A stretch of DNA of 64,000 nucleotides from an uncultured delta proteobacterium (GCA_963785725.1 CAWAWS010000006.1:192001-256000); one strand, 5' to 3'; positions 34,167-44,770 are shown, numbered from the stretch's first letter. Notes: generated from the sequence alone by a model not told the origin. A program made the numbers and translations.

Positions 34167-35653
34167 CAATGCCGTTCGGATAAGGTGGAGCGTCGGCGAG
34201 GTCATGGTGCCGGTTTGGGGCGCTTGCGGTTGTAGCTGGACATCTTGATCTTCACTTCCCGAGGCAGAACGCGGCCTGTGCGACGCTCGGGGAGCACCAA
34301 AAGCCTGAGCCGACGGGCCAACTCGTCGAGCTGTTTGGGGATGGCGCCCGGCGGCGAGTTCGAGCACCAGATCCACTCATCTCGAATGAGATCGAGCGCG
34401 TTGATGAAGCTGATGCGCGTGGGCGCCACTCCAACCTCGTCGGCCACGCGCTCGATCTCCAAGCGGATCAGGTTGTACGCCAGCGCGATCCCCCAGAGCT
34501 CTTGTCTGATTCCCGCTGGCGTTCGACTCCGAATGCACTCTTCTCGCGCCAGCAAGTGCGTCTTGACCTCGTCGTAGGCGAGCTCGATTTCCCAGCGCTC
34601 ATGGTAGAGCTCGATGACCTCGTCCGCTGGATATTGCTCGGCGTCTACCAGCGACGTCAGCAGCGTCGATGGACGGAAGCCGCGGCGTTGATAGCGGACC
34701 GCACGCAGGCTGACTGTCGCGGGCAGCTCGGGCGTCTCCTTTCGCGCTTCTCGCGATAGTGGGATTTCGACTAGATGATCGCCTTTGCCGAGCATCTTTA
34801 CGATCTTCACCGGAGTCCGCGACTTGAGGCGCGTCAGGAAGTGCTTCTCTTTGCCGCTAGCGCGAAGTTGAACCAGCGACGGCAACGGTGCACCTCGGTC
34901 GACCAGCGTCAACGAATGTTCGGGCACTTCGCGCCACAGCTCATTGGCGAGCGTCACTTCGCCGGTCGCGTAGCTCGCGAAACGAAAGGCCGAGAGGATA
35001 TGCGAACGCGCGGCCATCAGCCCGACGATACGAACCATCGGATAACCGCTCATCCCGTGTTGAGCACCCGCGGATTGTCCGCCGAATTCTGCGCGGTTAT
35101 CGACGGAGTCAGGCACACGTAAAGTCGTGCCGTCGTATACGTAAACGCTCAGCTCGCGCCATCGATGGCGCTCGGCGCTGCGCGCCGACCATTCGGCAGC
35201 GGTGGAATGGAACAAATAGGCGAGAGGCTCCTCACCGAGTCGCTGGCGAGCCTCGGCGATCGCGCTCTTAGCCACCAGCCTTCCCGTCGCGCTGGGCAGA
35301 CACAGGTCCAGGCTCGCGACGACGCGTTCGATGGCGCGATTGCGAAACAGCGCCATGCCCAGGACAATCCACAGCACCTGCACGGCCGGCAGCCGTCGCT
35401 TGCGCAGCGTTGCGACGCCGGTTGCGGCCAGTGCCTCTTCAAGCTGCACCGGGTTGAGGTGGCGGGTGAAATTCTCGAACGAATCCGGCGTCGCTCGGAC
35501 TGCCGTGTACTGTAGGGCGCCTTCGAGTAGCATGCGATTGCACCAGGGATGATCGCTGAATCCTGATCTCCTCAGCGCCGCGCGCTACTTTCTGCGGAGC
35601 GCTATTCAAAAACCCCGCAGCGACGATCACTTGCAGCTATCCGATCGGCATTG
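34167..35653 (-). mobile_element. Complete IS4-family insertion sequence (1487 bp)
   Basis: Terminal inverted repeats CAATGCCGTTCGGATAAG (34167-34184) and revcomp CAATGCCGATCGGATAGC (35636-35653); flanked by 10-bp direct repeat CCGCTAAGCC (34157-34166 and 35654-35663). Confidence 0.95.
34202..35533 (-). CDS. IS4-family DDE transposase
   Basis: IS4-type N-terminal domain (LRKRRLP), YDGTTLRVPD, VDRG, LYHERWEIELAYDEVK (YREK signature). Confidence 0.95.
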   Translation of the reverse strand: MLLEGALQYTAVRATPDSFENFTRHLNPVQLEEALAATGVATLRKRRLPAVQVLWIVLGMALFRNRAIERVVASLDLCLPSATGRLVAKSAIAEARQRLGEEPLAYLFHSTAAEWSARSAERHRWRELSVYVYDGTTLRVPDSVDNRAEFGGQSAGAQHGMSGYPMVRIVGLMAARSHILSAFRFASYATGEVTLANELWREVPEHSLTLVDRGAPLPSLVQLRASGKEKHFLTRLKSRTPVKIVKMLGKGDHLVEIPLSREARKETPELPATVSLRAVRYQRRGFRPSTLLTSLVDAEQYPADEVIELYHERWEIELAYDEVKTHLLAREECIRSRTPAGIRQELWGIALAYNLIRLEIERVADEVGVAPTRISFINALDLIRDEWIWCSNSPPGAIPKQLDELARRLRLLVLPERRTGRVLPREVKIKMSSYNRKRPKPAP

Positions 35654-36739: not shown

Positions 36740-37339
36740 CTAGAAGTCGCCGAACAGCTGCGTAATACGGACGTCGAGCGCGCTCGCCACCTTGAACAGC
36801 GACGACACCGACGCCGACGATTCGGCGCGTTCGATCTGCGACAGCAACGAGACCGACAGCTTGGTCCGCCGCGACATCTGCTTCAGCGTCAACCCGCGCG
36901 TCTTGCGCAGCTCGCGAATATTGCGCCCGATGGTCTGGTGCAGCTCGTCCTCCTTGCGGAGAACGAGGCCCTTCTTCTTCGCGATGCGCTCGATGACCGC
37001 GCGGAACTCGTCGACGGAGAACGGCTTCTTGATGTACGCCGAGACGTCATGCTCGATCGACGCCGTCGCCGTCTCCAGCGACGGGTACCCGGTCAGGATG
37101 ATGACGGCGACGTCGTCATCCTGCTTACGGATCATCCCGAGCAAATCAATCCCCGACAGCTTCGGCATCATCAGGTCGACGATGCAGACGTGGTAGTCGC
37201 CGCCCTTGAGCGTCTCGACTACCTGCGTCGGGTCATTGATTGTCGTGACGTTGTACCCGTCGTGGGTGAGGAAATCCTCGAGGTACTCGCAGACATCTTT
37301 GTCGTCATCGACGACGAGGAGATTCAATTGCGAAGACAA
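36740..37339 (-). CDS. Response regulator with receiver and XRE-family HTH
   Basis: LLVVDDD, DLMMPKLSG, ILTGY, YIKKPF; C-terminal IRELRKTRGLTLKQMS..SLLSQIER; start uncertain (TTG at 37339 or 37378). Confidence 0.9.
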   Translation of the reverse strand: MSSQLNLLVVDDDKDVCEYLEDFLTHDGYNVTTINDPTQVVETLKGGDYHVCIVDLMMPKLSGIDLLGMIRKQDDDVAVIILTGYPSLETATASIEHDVSAYIKKPFSVDEFRAVIERIAKKKGLVLRKEDELHQTIGRNIRELRKTRGLTLKQMSRRTKLSVSLLSQIERAESSASVSSLFKVASALDVRITQLFGDF

Positions 37340-37386
37340 CGGCCCCCCGGCCACGCCGCCAGGCGCTGGTTGTTCCAATGCAAGTA

Positions 37387-37461
<75 letters not shown>

Positions 37462-37504: not shown

Positions 37505-37854
37505 CGGGATTAGAGATTTTTCCGCAACTAGCAGCGCTGCGTTCGACCTCGATTCGGATATTCGCACATTTACGCGAGCGCGTCACACTCCGTCGCCGCG
37601 ACCAGGTTGCACACAAACACGCCGACATGCGTCAAAGACCGACGTCAGCGACGGGAAGCATAGCCATGCGCATCGCGAAACGAAGGGGAATCATCTATGT
37701 GGTCCCGGCTCCCGATCTGGGGGGCTAGGCCCCAGTCGTCTCTTTAATTTGTCAATGATTCCGATAGCTGAGACGGGCGCGTCCATTGCAGAGCTGGTCC
37801 GGCACCATGGTCCCCAACCGTCGACTCCGCGAGAACCTCGCCAATGCCGAACGA

Positions 37855-40641
37855 ATGGCAAAGCGGCGCAGTTCATTTGAGGATCAAGCAACCGTCGTAC
37901 CTATGGAAGATGTAGTGCCCGAGGAGACGCGGCCAGGCCGGCTGCGCGACTTTGCGGCCGATCTAGATGTATCCGAATCCGGCATCGAGCTGGGAACGGC
38001 CGATATCGACATCAGCGATCTGACCGGTCAGGCGGATCTGTTGAAGACCACGGCGCATCGGACGCAAAAGCGGCCGCAGCCGAAGAAGCGGTCCAAGGCG
38101 CTGTTCGACTTCGGCGATGACGACCAGACGCGCATCGACCCGTCGCAGGATCCCGATGTCGAAGTCTTGGCCGTCGAAGAGCGCCGCGAGCCGGCCCCGC
38201 GCGTCGTCCAGGCGCGCAAGCTGCCGCTCGAAGAGCTCGCGCCGCCGCGCAAGCCGCCGCTGCCGCACTTCGCGGCGCCGACGCCGGCGCGCAAGCCGCC
38301 GCAGCGCGAGGTCGAGGAAGTCGAAGAGTTCCGCTCCGAGAAGTCGGTCGTGTCGCGCATCGTCATGTCGGTGGTGGCGGCGCTGCCGTCGGCCATTCGC
38401 AAGGCGGTCGACAAGACGGGCGCGCATCAGCTGCCGAAGAAGCAGGCGCCGGCGGCGGACGACGGCCACGCGGAAGACAAGCGCGCGACGCAGACCAGCC
38501 CCGACGCCAGCGCCTGGCGCGAGATGCGCACGTCGCCGATCTTCGACGGTTTGCCCAACGAGGCGCTGCGTGACGCGCTGATGTCCAATGACGCCCAGGT
38601 GTTGCGCGTGGTGCGTGACTCGCTGGTGTCGATCGACGGCGCCGTCGGTTTGGTGCGCTCGGGCCAGGTGGCGCTCGGTCGCTTCACCGAGGAGTCGCTC
38701 GCCGACGAGCGCAAGGCGGCGGCGGTGTTCGCGGCGGCGGCGGCCAAGAAATACGGCAACAGCCACGAGAAGAAGGAGCGCAAGCGGCGCAACGAGGTCG
38801 GTCCGCTCATTCGCTTGGCCGAGCAGAACCTGGCCACGTTCGAAGAGGGCGACATCGTCGAGACCGCGGTCGGCTCGGCCAACCACTCGACGCTCGCCGT
38901 CTACAGCGTCACGCCGGCGGTCGTCATCGTCATCGCCCGCGCGCGCGTCGACTTGTGGCGGCGCATCTATCCGTTCATGGCCGACCGCTTCCGGCGTGCC
39001 GGCGCGGCTGCGCGCGCGAAAGTGGAGGCCACCGACGGCGCGAAGTCGGCCGTGGCCGACTTCTTCATCCGCCATGGCCTGTCGGTGTCGCTGACGTTGC
39101 GCGTGCGCAAGCTCGACGCCTGCATCGAGTGCAAGGCCTGCGAGATCGCCTGCGAAGATCGCTACGGCGTCAAGCGTCTATCGATCAATGGACGCATCCT
39201 CGGCAACCTCGACTTCGTCGACGCCTGCCACACCTGCACCGACGCGCGCTGCATCGATCCCTGCAACTTCGACGCGATCTCGTTCGACGTGCAGCGCAAA
39301 GAGATCCTCATCAAGGAAGACGCGTGCACCGGCTGCACGTTGTGCGCGACGGCGTGCCCTTACAACGCCATCGAGATGCACGAGATGGACGAAGCGCCGC
39401 TCTTGAAGCTGCGCCTGACGAAAGAGAAGAAGCTCGACTTCGGCGAGGGCACGGCGCGCAAAGCCAAGCTGCGTCGTATCGCGTCGAAGTGCGATCACTG
39501 CGCGTTCTACGAGGATCAGGCGTGCGTGACGGCCTGCCCGACCGGCGCGCTGCTCGAGATCATGCCGTCGGACGCGGTGACGCAGCTGCCGGAGCAGGCG
39601 CGCGCGTCGGCCAAGGCCGGCTTCGATCGCACCGTCGCCATCGACGTCAACTCGGTCAACCAGTCGCAGGCGTTCCACAAGGGCGGCATGCGCGATCTGC
39701 CCGACCTCGGGCGCGCGCGGGCCAAGCGCGGCAAGCTGTCGCTGCCGGTGTGGTGGACGCTGGGCGTGGGCGCGTTCCTGCTGTCGTGCGTCGAGATCGC
39801 GCTGCGCCTCTGGCTACCGCGGTACTCGATGGCGTATCTGATGAACACGCTGGTCGAAGGCATCGAGCCCGATCTGGCGCTGGCGCGCGTCAACTACGCG
39901 CCGGGCTGCGAGCTCGCCGTCGACTTCGGCTACGCGGGCACGGCCATGATGATGAGCGGCCTCGCCTACGTCTGGCGCCGGCGCTTCAGCTTCATGCGCA
40001 ACGTCGGCTCCTTGCGCAGCTGGTTCGAGTGGCACGTCTTGACCGGCGTCATCGGACCGGCGTTCATCCTCTTGCACTCGGTGGCCAAGCTCGACAACTG
40101 GGTCTCGCTCGGCTTCTGGAGCATGATCATCACGGTCGCCTCGGGCTTGCTCGGCCGCTACTTCATGACGCAGCTGGAAGAGCGCGCGTCGACGGCAGGC
40201 GTGGAGACGCTCGACATCGATCGCAAGCTGGCCGTGCTGCGTGGCGCGCATCCGGGCGTGCGCGCGGCCGACGTCTGGTACGAAGCCTATCAGCGACGGC
40301 TCGCGAACTTCGAGAAGCGGCTCGGCGGCACGGCGCAAGCGCCGACGTTCTTGGGCTCGCTGGCGACGCTTTGGTACGTCATCAAAGACGACGCCATGCG
40401 CGGACGGCGGCTGCGTCAGCTCAAGAGCCAGCTGCGCAAGACCGTGCACGGCCGCAACACCCGTAGCGTTCGCAAGCAAGCGGCAGTGCTGGCGCACCGG
40501 CTGGCGCTGATGGAGCGGAGGCGCGTCGTGTTGCCGCGTCTCGAGCCGCTGTTCAATCAATGGAAGGCGGTGCACATCCCGATGTCGGTCGTGATGACGG
40601 TGATTACTACCATCCACGTCGTCATCGAATTGCGCCGCTGA
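37855..40641 (+). CDS. Membrane redox protein: disordered N-terminus, degenerate cNMP-binding-like domain, 4x[4Fe-4S] ferredoxin, ferric-reductase-like di-heme-b TM domain
   Basis: CIECKACEIAC, CHTCTDARCIDPC, CTGCTLCATACP, KCDHC..ACVTACP; TM helices with two H-x13-H pairs (WHVLTGVIGPAFILLH; VHIPMSVVMTVITTIH); start codon uncertain. Confidence 0.85.
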   Translation: MAKRRSSFEDQATVVPMEDVVPEETRPGRLRDFAADLDVSESGIELGTADIDISDLTGQADLLKTTAHRTQKRPQPKKRSKALFDFGDDDQTRIDPSQDPDVEVLAVEERREPAPRVVQARKLPLEELAPPRKPPLPHFAAPTPARKPPQREVEEVEEFRSEKSVVSRIVMSVVAALPSAIRKAVDKTGAHQLPKKQAPAADDGHAEDKRATQTSPDASAWREMRTSPIFDGLPNEALRDALMSNDAQVLRVVRDSLVSIDGAVGLVRSGQVALGRFTEESLADERKAAAVFAAAAAKKYGNSHEKKERKRRNEVGPLIRLAEQNLATFEEGDIVETAVGSANHSTLAVYSVTPAVVIVIARARVDLWRRIYPFMADRFRRAGAAARAKVEATDGAKSAVADFFIRHGLSVSLTLRVRKLDACIECKACEIACEDRYGVKRLSINGRILGNLDFVDACHTCTDARCIDPCNFDAISFDVQRKEILIKEDACTGCTLCATACPYNAIEMHEMDEAPLLKLRLTKEKKLDFGEGTARKAKLRRIASKCDHCAFYEDQACVTACPTGALLEIMPSDAVTQLPEQARASAKAGFDRTVAIDVNSVNQSQAFHKGGMRDLPDLGRARAKRGKLSLPVWWTLGVGAFLLSCVEIALRLWLPRYSMAYLMNTLVEGIEPDLALARVNYAPGCELAVDFGYAGTAMMMSGLAYVWRRRFSFMRNVGSLRSWFEWHVLTGVIGPAFILLHSVAKLDNWVSLGFWSMIITVASGLLGRYFMTQLEERASTAGVETLDIDRKLAVLRGAHPGVRAADVWYEAYQRRLANFEKRLGGTAQAPTFLGSLATLWYVIKDDAMRGRRLRQLKSQLRKTVHGRNTRSVRKQAAVLAHRLALMERRRVVLPRLEPLFNQWKAVHIPMSVVMTVITTIHVVIELRR

Positions 40642-40681
40642 CGCTCTTGTCTCGGTCCGCTTTCTAAGCGACGATACGGCC

Positions 40682-43117
40682 GTGCCTCGCCTTCGGCTGG
40701 TAGTCGTGACTGCGCTCTTGCTGGTCCCGGCGCTCGCCAGGGCCGATTTCTTCTCCACCTCGCCCGGGCCGCTGGCTCAGGTCCACGCCAACATCGACAG
40801 CAAGGACCACTGCACCGACTGCCACACGAGCGGACGCGAGCTCGCCGCCGAGAAGTGCATCAAGTGCCACGAGCCGATCGGCGAGCGGCAGCGCGAGCGC
40901 AAAGGCGTGCACGCGTCGCCCAAAGCGCTCGGCAAGCCGTGCGAGCTGTGCCACACCGACCACAAAGGGCGGAACAAGAACATCCTCGGCTTCGAGTTCT
41001 TCGGCGGGCGCGAGAAGTTCGATCACAACCTGCTGACGCCGTTCCAGCTCGAAGGCAAGCATCAGACGACCAAGTGCAACGACTGCCATAAAGACAAGAC
41101 GGCGTCGGGGACGTTCACGTATCTGAAGGCGCCGACGGCGTGCGCCAGCTGCCACAACAATCCGCACGGCGACTTGCACGAGAAGCTGCGCAACTGCGAG
41201 CGCTGCCACGATGCGCGCTCGTGGAAGATGAAGGACGACGCGCAGTTCGATCACGACCGCGACACGCGCTATCCGCTCGAGAAGAAGCACGAGCCGGTCA
41301 AGTGCGCGGCCTGCCACGCGACGACGAAGTCGGGGCAGCCGCCGAATGCGAAAGCGCCGATTCCGGCGCTGACTCCGGCCGGCTATCAGAAGATGACGTT
41401 CCGCTGGCCGACGTGGGGCTTCGATTGCCAGCCGTGCCACGACAACGTGCACGGGACGTCGCTGTTCGGGACGAAGTCGTGCAAGAGCTGCCACTCGGCC
41501 AAGGTCGAGTTCACCAAGATCTTCTTCGACCACAACAAGCGCACGCGCTTCCCGCTCGACGGTGAGCACGCCGATACCAAGAAGGCGACGTGCTACTCCT
41601 GCCATCCGAAAGAGCTCAAGGGCAAGCCGTCGATGCGCTGCGACGGCTGCCATCAGGACGTGCACAAAGGGCGGTTCGCGAAGGCGTCCAACGGCAACGA
41701 CTGCGGCAGCTGCCACACGGCGGTCAATTGGCCGACGGATTTGAAGTTCGATCACAACACGCGCACCAAGTTCCCGCTCACGGGCGCGCACGCCAACGCC
41801 GATTGCCGCGCCTGCCATCGCGGCAAAGGGCCGGCCGAGTGGGAGAACGTCTCGTCGCTGGTGACGCGCTCGGGGCGCGAGCAAAAGGTCGCCTGCATGG
41901 GCTGCCACCAGCACGAGAACGTGCACAAGAAGCAGTATCCGAACGAGCGCTGCCTCGAGTGCCACAAGATGGCCGGCATCGTCGACACCAAGCCGCGCGC
42001 CATCAACGAGTTCCACGGGCCCAACTCGCGCTTCCCGCTGACCGAAGGGCACAAAGGCGTCGCCTGCGAGAAGTGCCATCCCGGCAACGTCTTCAAGAAG
42101 GACATGACGCTGCAGTGCGGTCCGACGTGCCATCCCGACGAGCTGCACAAAGGGACGCTCGGCAAAGACTGCTTGAGCTGCCACTCGGGCGGCCGGTGGG
42201 AAGCGCGCCTCTTCGATCACGACACGAAGACGAAGTGGCCGCTCGTCGGCAACCACAAGGACGTCACCTGCGAGGCCTGCCATCCGCGGCGCGACTTCGC
42301 CAACAACCGCGGCAAGAGCACCACTTGCTACAACTGCCACTCCAAGGACGACGCGCACAACGGGCAGCTCGGCCATCGCTGCGAGACATGCCATTCGCCC
42401 GACGGCAAAGTGGCGTTCGACCACAACGATCCCGAGTTCAGCGACTGGCCGCTCCTCGGCAAGCACAAGAAGGTCAAGTGCAACGAGTGCCATAAGTCGA
42501 TCGAGTTCAAGCCGACGCCGCGCGAGTGCGGCGGCTGCCACGGCGAGCCCGCCGTGCATCGCGGCCAGCTCGGCACGTTGTGCGCGTCCTGCCACGTCAA
42601 CGACGACTGGAAGATCATCCACACCGGCCACGACGTGCCGACGCCGCGCTTCGGCGGCGCGCACGACCGCGTGCCGTGTGTGTCGTGCCATCCGGGCGGC
42701 CGCTTGCTCGGCGGCACGGGGCAGCTGTGCATCACCTGCCATCGCAACGACGACATCCACCACAACGGGCTCGGGCCGCGCTGCGGCGAGTGCCACACGC
42801 AGCAGTCGTGGGCGGCGGCGCACTTCGAGCACACGCGCGTCGGCTGCGAGCTGACCGGCAGCCATCGCCTGTTGCCGTGCGTGGGCTGCCACATCGGCGG
42901 CAACTTCGTCGCGCTGGCGACGGACTGCGTCGCCTGCCACCGTAAAGACGCCGTGCGCGGCGGTGCCGCATACGCCGCGTCTCTCAAACAGGCCGGCAAT
43001 GCGGCCATCATCGCGACTCACGCCATGTTCCCTCAGTGCGGCAGCTGCCACAACACGATCTTCTGGGGAACGACGTCTTCGCGTCTCGCCGGCGGTCGCG
43101 AGTCGGTGTGCCGATGA
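40682..43117 (+). CDS. Periplasmic 30-heme c-type cytochrome built of ten triheme repeats
   Basis: Sec signal peptide (ALARA|DFF); manual count 29 CxxCH + 1 CxxxCH (CGPTCH); repeating FDH..[FYW]PLxGxH..CxxCH..CxxCH..H..CxxCH unit. Confidence 0.95.
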   Translation: MPRLRLVVVTALLLVPALARADFFSTSPGPLAQVHANIDSKDHCTDCHTSGRELAAEKCIKCHEPIGERQRERKGVHASPKALGKPCELCHTDHKGRNKNILGFEFFGGREKFDHNLLTPFQLEGKHQTTKCNDCHKDKTASGTFTYLKAPTACASCHNNPHGDLHEKLRNCERCHDARSWKMKDDAQFDHDRDTRYPLEKKHEPVKCAACHATTKSGQPPNAKAPIPALTPAGYQKMTFRWPTWGFDCQPCHDNVHGTSLFGTKSCKSCHSAKVEFTKIFFDHNKRTRFPLDGEHADTKKATCYSCHPKELKGKPSMRCDGCHQDVHKGRFAKASNGNDCGSCHTAVNWPTDLKFDHNTRTKFPLTGAHANADCRACHRGKGPAEWENVSSLVTRSGREQKVACMGCHQHENVHKKQYPNERCLECHKMAGIVDTKPRAINEFHGPNSRFPLTEGHKGVACEKCHPGNVFKKDMTLQCGPTCHPDELHKGTLGKDCLSCHSGGRWEARLFDHDTKTKWPLVGNHKDVTCEACHPRRDFANNRGKSTTCYNCHSKDDAHNGQLGHRCETCHSPDGKVAFDHNDPEFSDWPLLGKHKKVKCNECHKSIEFKPTPRECGGCHGEPAVHRGQLGTLCASCHVNDDWKIIHTGHDVPTPRFGGAHDRVPCVSCHPGGRLLGGTGQLCITCHRNDDIHHNGLGPRCGECHTQQSWAAAHFEHTRVGCELTGSHRLLPCVGCHIGGNFVALATDCVACHRKDAVRGGAAYAASLKQAGNAAIIATHAMFPQCGSCHNTIFWGTTSSRLAGGRESVCR

Positions 43118-44770
43118 TCCGTCGGCTCCTGCGCTTCGTGCCGCTGCTGTTGGTCTTGTTGCCGACGGCGGCGCGCGCGCAGGATCTGAAAGATCGCTTC
43201 AACATCAAGCTGTCGTTGACCGGCATGTACGAGACGGAGCAAGAGGGCGAGCTGCCGGCGGCCTATGCGCGCACGCAGCCGACGACCGGCGGCAACGGCG
43301 TGGGCCAGGTGTCGTCGCCGTTCCAGCTCGGCTACGGCGAGCTGCGCGCGGTCATCGACGGGCGGCGGCTGCCCGGCAACTTCGATCTGCACATCGACGC
43401 GCGCGTACGGCTGACCGGCCCCTACTCGATCGACGACGCCACCGTCGGCAATCAGCCCATCACCGCCCGCGGCTACTTGGGCGGCAGCGAATACGACCTG
43501 CGTTCGGCCTGGGTGCGACGACGCGGCGAGAGCTGGGACTTCGGCCTCGGCCGCATGATCGTGTCCGAGGCCGACGCCCTGCGCATCGACGGCGCGCGAT
43601 TATGGTGGCGCATGGCGAAACACTGGGACGCCAGCTTGTACGCCGGCGGCTACGGCGATCCCTATTCGCGCTCGCTCAACGACGACTATTCGGGCGGCTT
43701 CGCCGCGGCCGGCGGCGGCGACGCGACGTACACGTACGATAAGATCTGGGGCTCGTTCAGCGTCAACGGCGCCTACTTCAGCGGCAACGACGACGGCGGC
43801 CCGATCGTCATCAACGCCGACGGCTCCATCGCCCCCGGCAAGCCGACGCGCGAGAAGCCGCGCACCTGGCTCACGTGGACCGACTTCATCCGCATCGCGT
43901 CGTGGCTCGACCTGTTCACTGATGTCGTCGTCGACGCGTCGGGCGAGGCGGGCGCGCAGCTCACGCGGCTCGACGCGCTGGCCACGATTCGCGCCGGCTC
44001 GCACCTGACGTTCCGCCTCGGCTACGATCACCTGTCGGCGTTCGCGATCGAAATGTGGCTGACCAAGCTGCTCACCGATCGCTCGCAGGTCGTCGCCAAC
44101 ACCATCGAGAACAACTTGACGGTCGAGCGCACCTCGCGCGACGAAGGCCGCGGCCAGGTCGATTCTCGCGTTCGGCAAATTCTCGGTCAACGGCGAAGGC
44201 CGCGTGCGCAAACGCGCGCTCGTCTCGCTCACCGACGACACGCAGTTCACCAACCAGGGCAAACAGGTCGCGCCCGGCTTCGCCTGGGACGCGACGCTCG
44301 GCGTGCACGATCGCGGCTCGCTCGCCGGCTTTCGCGAGGGCTTGTGGGCGATGTACTTGAGCGACTATCGCGCCAACAGCTTCCTCGTCGGCTTCGACCT
44401 CGGCCGCAGCTTCTGGGACGAGAAGCTCACCATCGACTTCGCGTTCTTGTACGCCAAGACCAAAGACGACGACTCGGGCAAAGGCACGCCCGTCGCCAAC
44501 ATGCCGACCTTGCCCATCGCCTGCAACACGGCGACGTATCTGACGATCAACTCGACCTGCTACGGCACGCGCAACGGCGCCGAGTACGAGACCGGCATCA
44601 CCATCGGCGGCTCGCCGTTCAACCACTGGTATGCGTTCGTCGACTATCGGCTCGTCGTCGACAAGACCGACGGCAACATCGCCAACGCCGCGGGCACGAC
44701 GACGCCGGCGCTGCCCGAGCCGACGATCCTGACGCACGTGCTGCTCCTGCGGCTCGAAGCGCGTTACTGA
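43114..44770 (+). CDS. Outer-membrane beta-barrel protein (~551 aa) interrupted by a +1 frameshift at 44163/44164
   Basis: ATGA overlap with the cytochrome; signal peptide (AARA|QDL); amphipathic Trp/Tyr/Gly strands. Removing one T in GATTCTC joins the two ORFs (..GQVDLAFGKFSVNGEGRVRKRAL..) and ends in LLLRLEARY with a terminal aromatic residue. Confidence 0.8.

Follow-up and report, generated by a model that had tools for sequence, protein, structure and literature searches.

Can three adjacent bacterial genes make up a wire that carries electrons from the cytoplasm to the cell surface? The question is raised by a cluster at positions 37855 to 44770 of a 64,000-nt stretch of DNA from an uncultured delta proteobacterium (GCA_963785725.1 CAWAWS010000006.1:192001-256000; the whole stretch is referred to below as the window). 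An earlier note, drawn up from the sequence alone, had described an inner-membrane iron-sulfur and heme protein, a multiheme cytochrome and a beta-barrel, and had suggested that this operon by itself could link cytoplasm and surface in a myxobacterium-like host. The three genes are as follows (lengths in amino acids, aa).

37855..40641, + strand: gene A, inner-membrane redox protein, 928 aa from the start at 37855
40682..43117, + strand: gene B, 30-heme c-type cytochrome with a signal peptide, 811 aa, c7-like repeats
43114..44770, + strand: gene C, outer-membrane beta-barrel, with one extra base near 44163 in the present assembly

The genes are co-oriented, with a gap of 40 nt between A and B and an ATGA overlap joining B to C, and the tight packing described in the earlier note is confirmed. 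Relative to a same-genus orthologue, differences in all three genes fall mostly at third codon positions, so that their coding pattern is not a product of chance. We consider it probable that the cluster encodes a trans-envelope electron conduit of some kind. That it forms an outward wire from NAD(P)H to the surface, used for redox balance or extracellular reduction and itself not energy-conserving, is given about an even chance. For this wire we infer cofactor binding, the contacts between the proteins, polarity, direction of flow and the acceptor.

A cytochrome with 30 heme motifs

Gene B holds 29 CxxCH motifs and one CxxxCH, 30 in all, at a density of 27 aa per heme, and its N-terminus was judged by eye to be signal-peptide-like with no lipobox, which bears out the exported 30-heme cytochrome of the earlier note. 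The gene B alignment (n=103) was made of the window protein, one protein from a fetched locus and 101 of the 120 listed matches; the 19 matches left out were partial, longer or judged redundant, and their omission biases the tally of heme counts towards uniformity. In this alignment 30 motifs were found in 101 of the 103 proteins and 29 in the other two. Thirty histidines outside the motifs show conservation of 99% or more, and their number would suffice to make all hemes bis-His; one more is conserved in 89%; the single mostly conserved methionine is present in 85%. The last six hemes lie in a lysine-poor stretch (1.5-2% Lys vs 6-11%).

The closest solved relative of the gene B profile is Geobacter GSU1996 (PDB 3OV0, E 9.6e-9), which is likewise a chain of c7-type triheme repeats. 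GSU1996 has 12 hemes with one His-Met heme per domain, whereas gene B has 30 that could all be bis-His. The match to the DmsE/MtrA-family decaheme model (TIGR03508) reached 27.5 bits against a cut-off of 192.2, in keeping with the earlier view of the cytochrome as not MtrA-like. The triheme domains of GSU1996 are reported to place 12 hemes over 12 nm, and MtrA is described as spacing 10 hemes over 80 Å (PMC7198977). Scaled from these two proteins, gene B is predicted to measure 24-30 nm if extended. A length of this order is about the span of the periplasm plus the outer membrane.

A PG-L-x-H motif at the N-terminus of gene B recurs in a 7-heme cytochrome that adjoins a membrane-protein gene, and no barrel is annotated in the fetched stretch of that locus. 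The C-terminus of MtrA is reported to point outward (PMC7198977). Together these favor an orientation in which the N-terminus of gene B would face inward.

The barrel gene and its frame

The reading frame of gene C changes near 44163, and its C-terminal residue is tyrosine. In 20/20 relative loci the two halves of the gene share one frame, and contigs from two of four soil runs have one base fewer at 44163; both of these runs belong to one study, possibly the source study. The extra base is thus likely to be an assembly error and not the mark of a dead gene, and a programmed or inactivating frameshift was judged unlikely on the same grounds.

The intact same-genus orthologue, folded with 90 sequences, was modeled as a 22-strand barrel without a plug (predicted local distance difference test score, pLDDT, 88.3), with strand 1 starting at mature residue 6. 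A large barrel with an aromatic end, as the earlier note had it, is therefore upheld. The alignment of the model with TonB-dependent receptors is confined to their barrel part, past the plug regions; TonB-dependent transporters carry an N-terminal plug, whereas the gene C model has none. Its other structural matches are generic barrels, and 6r2q_B is aligned with Z 14.3 and a root-mean-square deviation (rmsd) of 7.4 Å. No Pfam or NCBIfam family names gene C, and the hits to Binary_toxB_2 (E 0.057), DUF6384 and an antiporter, each weak and confined to a single member, were taken as chance. The MtrB/PioB model gave 0 matches on the host genome, where the control also matched nowhere. The gene C profile reaches 209 clusters at 50% identity.

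The inner-membrane redox protein

Residue numbers of gene A are counted from the start at 37855; the true start is probably the ATG at 37807, which is favored because the same-genus orthologue begins MVPNRR. A poorly conserved N-terminal region of ~210 aa is followed by a cyclic nucleotide monophosphate (cNMP) fold, a ferredoxin domain with cysteines for four [4Fe-4S] clusters, and a membrane domain of five helices. Residues 213-928 were modeled with AlphaFold2 (AF2) from 73 near-full-length sequences picked from 112 matches (mean pLDDT 89.4). The domains are as follows.

38491..39054, + strand: Crp/CNBHD cyclic-nucleotide-binding fold, gene A residues ~213-400
39121..39537, + strand: HycB/HydN/AOR-B-type ferredoxin domain, 16 Cys for four [4Fe-4S] clusters
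39742..40638, + strand: five-helix diheme-b-type membrane domain, two b hemes predicted

The cNMP-fold domain was superimposed on 3dn7 with a VIA-align Z of 11.4 (rmsd 3.5 Å over 138 aligned residues). Pfam cNMP_binding matches only distant homologues of gene A (E 4.6e-7 in L101) and not the window protein. Match lists from fold searches with the whole model were dominated by cNMP and Fe-S domains.

The 16 cysteines of the ferredoxin domain lie in four groups between residues 423 and 561, two of them canonical CxxCxxCxxxC and two variant. Fifteen are invariant across the 73 homologues and C494 is conserved in 96%. The domain matches Pfam Fer4 families, PF13247 reaching 28.6 bits against a cut-off of 26.2, and is fused upstream of the membrane domain; its top Foldseek matches are 7z0s_B, 7qv7 and 9mqx.

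Five membrane helices were assigned from the AF2 secondary structure and hydropathy. Long helices 3 and 5 of the modeled membrane domain each carry the motif W-x3-H-x13-H (W723, H727 and H741; W903, H907 and H921), and SGxxG lies on helix 4 (SGLLG, 763-767); all four histidines, both tryptophans and SGxxG are invariant in the 73 homologues. The four [4Fe-4S] motifs and two H-x13-H pairs of the earlier note were therefore found again. Gene A is without a signal peptide, which would place its N-terminus in the cytoplasm, H727 and H907 near the cytoplasm and H741 and H921 near the periplasm. With this topology, the pairs would form two heme sites stacked across the inner membrane.

The earlier label of a ferric-reductase-type module held only at the level of the motif, ferric reductases and NADPH oxidases (FRD, PF01794) also using two H-x13-H pairs for a transmembrane diheme chain. 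The PF01794 profile gave E 0.11 and 13 bits on gene A, below its cut-off of 28, and weak matches at E<=1 in 5 of 12 aligned members (best 0.022). When the membrane-domain profile was run against the sequences of solved structures, only chance matches and no solved FRD protein were returned.

Two observations were made on gene A in relatives. A small open reading frame (ORF) with one or two CxxCH motifs lies just upstream of it at L016:5401-6051 and L013:13125-13868; there is none in the window. At L013:7644-12975 (G002, an assembly of 9 contigs) several frameshifts and one stop interrupt both gene A and gene B, which looks like indel error.

A candidate cytoplasmic donor

Ferredoxins of the HycB/HydN type normally receive electrons from a catalytic partner. 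No such donor is encoded in the three-gene operon. The host genome holds one homologue of an Fe-S flavoprotein, unlinked to the cluster:

G000:C4:16089-17555 (L102:6090-7556), - strand: membrane-anchored flavoprotein, two [4Fe-4S] plus Pyr_redox_3, FAD/NAD(P)H

Its CxxC motifs are confined to the N-terminal anchor and Fe-S part, the reductase part having none. Strong orthologues (E<=1e-140) were found in 21 of the 23 relatives with gene A and in 0 of the 8 without it. In the phylum sample described below, 9 of 10 carriers have a strong orthologue and no other genome has one at this threshold, the next best match being 1e-105. In three genomes a distance of 4-5 kb separates the flavoprotein gene from gene A. 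A homologue stops 3 nt ahead of a gene A homologue in the operon at L079, the flavoprotein is divergent in 4 of 5 loci of a second cluster type (L042-L046), and a homologue is also found within a cluster of Emticicia. Judged from these sequences, the flavoprotein is likely to be the cytoplasmic end of the wire. With no catalytic donor in the operon and an unlinked Fe-S flavoprotein that tracks with gene A, the earlier suggestion that the operon alone could join cytoplasm and surface becomes doubtful; it is probably not self-sufficient.

Distribution of the three genes

The barrel is present in 23 of 31 related genomes and a strong gene A match likewise in 23; 22 genomes have the two together and 7 have neither. 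Completeness is 51% and 80% for the two genomes that have one without the other. The cytochrome adjoins the barrel in 20/20 relative loci fetched. Of 401 genomes of the phylum, 10 have a strong barrel match, the identical 10 have a full-length gene A match, and all three genes lie in order in 6 of 9 loci fetched from them. A weak barrel match was obtained in 11 more genomes, from two families of another class; in 10/10 loci fetched from these a 30-CxxCH cytochrome lies beside the barrel, and in 6/10 a gene for a cNMP/Fe-S/membrane protein lies upstream. Exceptions to the single cytochrome of 30 motifs are L079 and L076 (two genes), L031 (two pieces) and L086 (29 motifs). The co-occurrence expected from the earlier note is thus seen in the relatives, the phylum sample and the distant clade.

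Other arrangements were also encountered. A second myxobacterial cluster type (L042-L046 in G006, G021, G010, G003 and G012) has a stand-alone membrane protein of ~290 aa with the same histidine motifs, usually a barrel-like gene of ~480 aa and, in 4 loci, a 30-CxxCH cytochrome; L046 reaches the contig edge. Some myxobacterial genomes hold both cluster types. A paralogous operon at L079:2070-14361 comprises the flavoprotein, the cNMP/Fe-S/membrane protein, two cytochromes (20 and 15 motifs), a barrel of the same family, one gene of unknown type and an SH3-containing tetraheme protein. On a plasmid of the cultured Bacteroidota member Emticicia oligotrophica (NC_018749.1; L081:6198-18782) lies a cluster like PCC3 (see below) with ccsA, a stand-alone membrane protein, the Fe-S flavoprotein, 23- and 40-CxxCH cytochromes and a putative barrel.

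Comparison with known systems

The nearest precedents are PCC3 and PCC4, as defined by He et al. (2017; PMC5566968), who proposed that their inner-membrane proteins are quinone-active diheme proteins. By the published motif description, PCC3 shares with the present cluster a five-helix membrane protein with two W-x3-H-x13-H on helices 3 and 5 and SGxxG on helix 4. Its periplasmic cytochromes, with 21, 24 or 27 hemes, have been suggested to span the periplasm (Hoover et al., PMC9900912); like gene B (30 hemes) they are reported to exceed 20 hemes, to rise in steps of three and to be repeat-built, with 22-39 aa per heme. A barrel is also present, with 22 predicted membrane segments in Leptothrix cholodnii, and a span of the whole envelope has been proposed. 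PCC3 differs in having an extracellular cytochrome, which the present cluster is without, and a stand-alone membrane protein of ~300 aa where gene A is fused to the cNMP-fold and 4x[4Fe-4S] domains. PCC3 homologues were reported in Alpha-, Beta- and Gammaproteobacteria, whereas the present host belongs to the Myxococcota. A 2025 preprint calls PCC3 functionally unverified (10.1101/2025.02.27.639646), and proteomics is reported to have detected some PCC3 proteins but not the listed extracellular cytochrome (PMC11429942).

PCC4 subgroup II is described with the same membrane-protein signature, further redox genes and no extracellular cytochrome. Its PF13247 Fe-S gene lies directly upstream of the membrane-protein gene, and in Oceanospirillum beijerinckii a single gene is annotated. 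PCC4 has three small periplasmic cytochromes (4, 5 and 10 hemes), whereas the present cluster has one 30-heme protein. With no extracellular cytochrome and no 4/5/10-heme set, the cluster falls in neither group, although it would work in the way predicted for both.

The geometry predicted here is analogous to that reported for Shewanella MtrAB(C) (PDB 6R2Q; PMC7198977) and for PioAB/MtoAB, a plugless barrel with a bis-His multiheme cytochrome; the MtrB barrel has been described as LptD-sized (PMC7198977). Unlike these systems, the present barrel has no MtrB/PioB match and the cytochrome has 30 hemes and scores far below the DmsE cut-off; unlike Mtr, the cluster has an inner-membrane module of its own in place of CymA and soluble shuttles.

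Many novel multiheme clusters are reported from Myxococcota (10.1101/2022.03.26.485925). In the MHCscan supplement (PMC11475568), Haliangium ochraceum is listed with a 794-aa protein tagged with 29 hemes and then a 555-aa heme-free protein; the pair resembles genes B and C in size only, and this species may be a cultured carrier. A term search of a 2026 review of iron-oxidation proteins (PMC13741234) returned neither PCC3 nor PCC4. We found no paper on the present myxobacterial cluster in a search that covered subscription journals thinly and did not cover the Table S4 entries of He et al. (2017), so that carriers may have been missed. The earlier statement that such a system is not well characterized therefore holds for the myxobacterial cluster, but the close precedent of PCC3/PCC4 had been overlooked.

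Proposed route and alternatives

In the outward wire, electrons would pass from NAD(P)H to FAD and on to the two [4Fe-4S] clusters of the membrane-anchored flavoprotein, then to the four [4Fe-4S] clusters of gene A and the two b hemes stacked across the inner membrane, and from there to the N-terminal end of the 30-heme cytochrome. The C-terminal hemes would lie inside the 22-strand barrel and pass them to an outside acceptor, for which Fe(III), humic quinones or another cell are candidates; the cNMP-fold domain may gate the flow. The proposal resembles the FRD path from NAD(P)H through FAD and two b hemes to the outside. It differs from it in that the flavin domain stands on its own as a TrxB/YpdA-like protein equipped with Fe-S relays, gene A itself lying below the PF01794 cut-off. 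Electrons moving from cytoplasm to periplasm spend membrane potential, so that the route would dump reductant or reduce an outside target with no energy conserved. Outward flow is downhill, whereas inward flow to NAD(P)+ would, by textbook values, need a donor near -470 mV; export is favored for this reason.

A number of observations weigh against this route. The host genome encodes two heme-copper oxidases and so has no evident need of an outside acceptor. Gene A adjoins the other two genes in only 8 of 20 relative loci, and the earlier description of the three genes as one operon does not stand for one family, in which gene A usually lies on another contig than the cytochrome and barrel. The co-occurrence counts are overstated because kin share genes; they are non-independent tallies and not tests. 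Members of the flavoprotein family occur in many genomes (135 of the 401 have one at E<=1e-40), and a strong score partly reflects kinship; one genome (G423) has the three genes and only a weaker paralogue, and the distant clade is without a strong orthologue.

Further such points come from the outer-membrane end. None of 15 intact barrels matched the MtrB/PioB families in Pfam or NCBIfam at E<=1, the barrel profile returned only chance matches among sequences of solved structures, and a comparison by language-model features put PEP-CTERM-system and EpsX export barrels closest to the barrel among named proteins. MtrB has 26 strands, against 22 in the present barrel. Neither the window nor most relative loci have a second cytochrome close to the cluster. 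An operon without an extracellular cytochrome, and a barrel smaller than MtrB with export barrels among its look-alikes, would also suit a chain with a periplasmic end, in which the 30-heme protein is an electron store or bus and the barrel an anchor, an exporter or a passage for a soluble substrate or shuttle. Porin-less clusters of membrane protein and cytochrome are on record (He et al., 2017, Table S6; PMC5566968), and GSU1996, the best solved relative, has been called a periplasmic capacitor. We regard a periplasmic terminus as quite unlikely, given that cytochrome and barrel are translationally coupled and adjacent in all 20 loci, that a near-fixed number of 30 hemes suggests a fixed span rather than a storage capacity, and that the barrel is predicted to be plugless.

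At the inner membrane, a last point against the wire is that gene A shares its signature with the membrane protein of PCC3/PCC4, which has been proposed to be a quinone-active cytochrome b (PMC5566968). The diheme domain could accordingly be a quinol oxidase or quinone reductase within a conduit coupled to the quinone pool, with the Fe-S domain as a side branch, and the system could let the cell respire external acceptors or take up electrons from donors, Fe(II) among them. The weak Pfam matches, to cytochrome b561 and ferric reductase, are consistent with this, and PCC3 genes are reported to be expressed in iron oxidizers, one membrane component rising with iron-oxidizing activity (10.1101/2025.02.27.639646; PMC11429942). 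However, four invariant [4Fe-4S] clusters fused on the cytoplasmic side and a repeatedly linked NAD(P)H flavoprotein point to a cytoplasmic end, and uptake to NAD(P)+ against the membrane potential would call for a donor of very low potential; no quinone site was identified, though no test was aimed at one. Coupling to quinones is thus held to be unlikely, and the outward wire from NAD(P)H is preferred.

Host and neighborhood

Close orthologues of the cluster genes come mostly from Polyangia or Myxococcales bacterium records, all of them metagenome-assembled genomes, which agrees with the myxobacterium-like host of the earlier note; its suggested check for cytochrome c maturation was answered by Ccm-type genes in the host genome. 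Judged from translations, the cluster sits in the core chromosome, ~17 kb downstream of ribosomal-protein operons: window positions 1-20760 hold the end of rpoC and the str, S10, spc and alpha operons, to which the lower GC of the first 20 kb of the window is attributed. A nucleotide search of plasmids gave no match.

The - strand at 36740-37461, divergent from the cluster, encodes tRNA-Pro(CGG) and an HTH_3-domain response regulator. Within the family, both this regulator and rpe are conserved as neighbors; a 443-aa ORF placed between them (34202-35533, - strand) resembles what we take to be an IS4-type transposase. This helix-turn-helix regulator as a conserved divergent neighbor, and a cNMP-fold in all fused homologues inspected, would fit a redox sensor, in which the wire would inform the cytoplasm of the redox potential outside, and a regulator would be addressed through the Fe-S state together with the cNMP-fold domain and its long N-terminal tail. 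We think this very unlikely: output domains of the kinase, cyclase or DNA-binding kind are absent from gene A, outside the family the regulator does not adjoin gene A, and in a paralogous cluster type the membrane protein, barrel and 30-heme cytochrome are present but the cNMP domain is missing.

Multiheme genes unrelated to the cluster sit on other contigs of the host. One group (L049:4526-10525; G000:C5:40.5-46.5 kb) encodes a 10-heme MtrC-like protein with a collagen repeat, a further 10-heme protein, a 421-aa protein without a Pfam family and a 13-heme ORF, and is possibly another outer-membrane conduit. At L050:6357-11091 (G000:C16) a 13-CxxCH ORF lies downstream of a Kelch-repeat protein.

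Implications

The type of wire is a predicted one, put forward from genomes in 2017 as the PCC3/PCC4 clusters. Compared with published work, three features are new: a single wire whose heme count is nearly fixed at 30 and matched by the number of histidines, the fusion of cNMP and 4x[4Fe-4S] domains, and an unlinked flavoprotein that is co-distributed with gene A. The present variant is the simplest form seen, with three genes, a near-fixed heme count and a candidate cytoplasmic donor enzyme. It makes two questions directly testable: whether one cytochrome bridges both membranes, and whether NAD(P)H rather than quinol is the source.

A bolder version of the proposal, rather unlikely as a whole, is that oxidase-bearing myxobacteria run a one-protein 30-heme wire of fixed length from the NAD(P)H pool to the surface, with no quinones or shuttles, as a whole-envelope counterpart of NADPH oxidase and ferric reductase that is gated by the cNMP-fold and reduces metals, humics, oxygen or contacted prey.

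If Haliangium ochraceum, so far a match in size only, is a carrier, this cultured species would offer a bench system, and if the outward wire is real its compactness would be of interest for bioelectrochemistry. Soil and sludge myxobacteria would then have a way of passing electrons out of the cell that differs from both Mtr and Geobacter Pcc.

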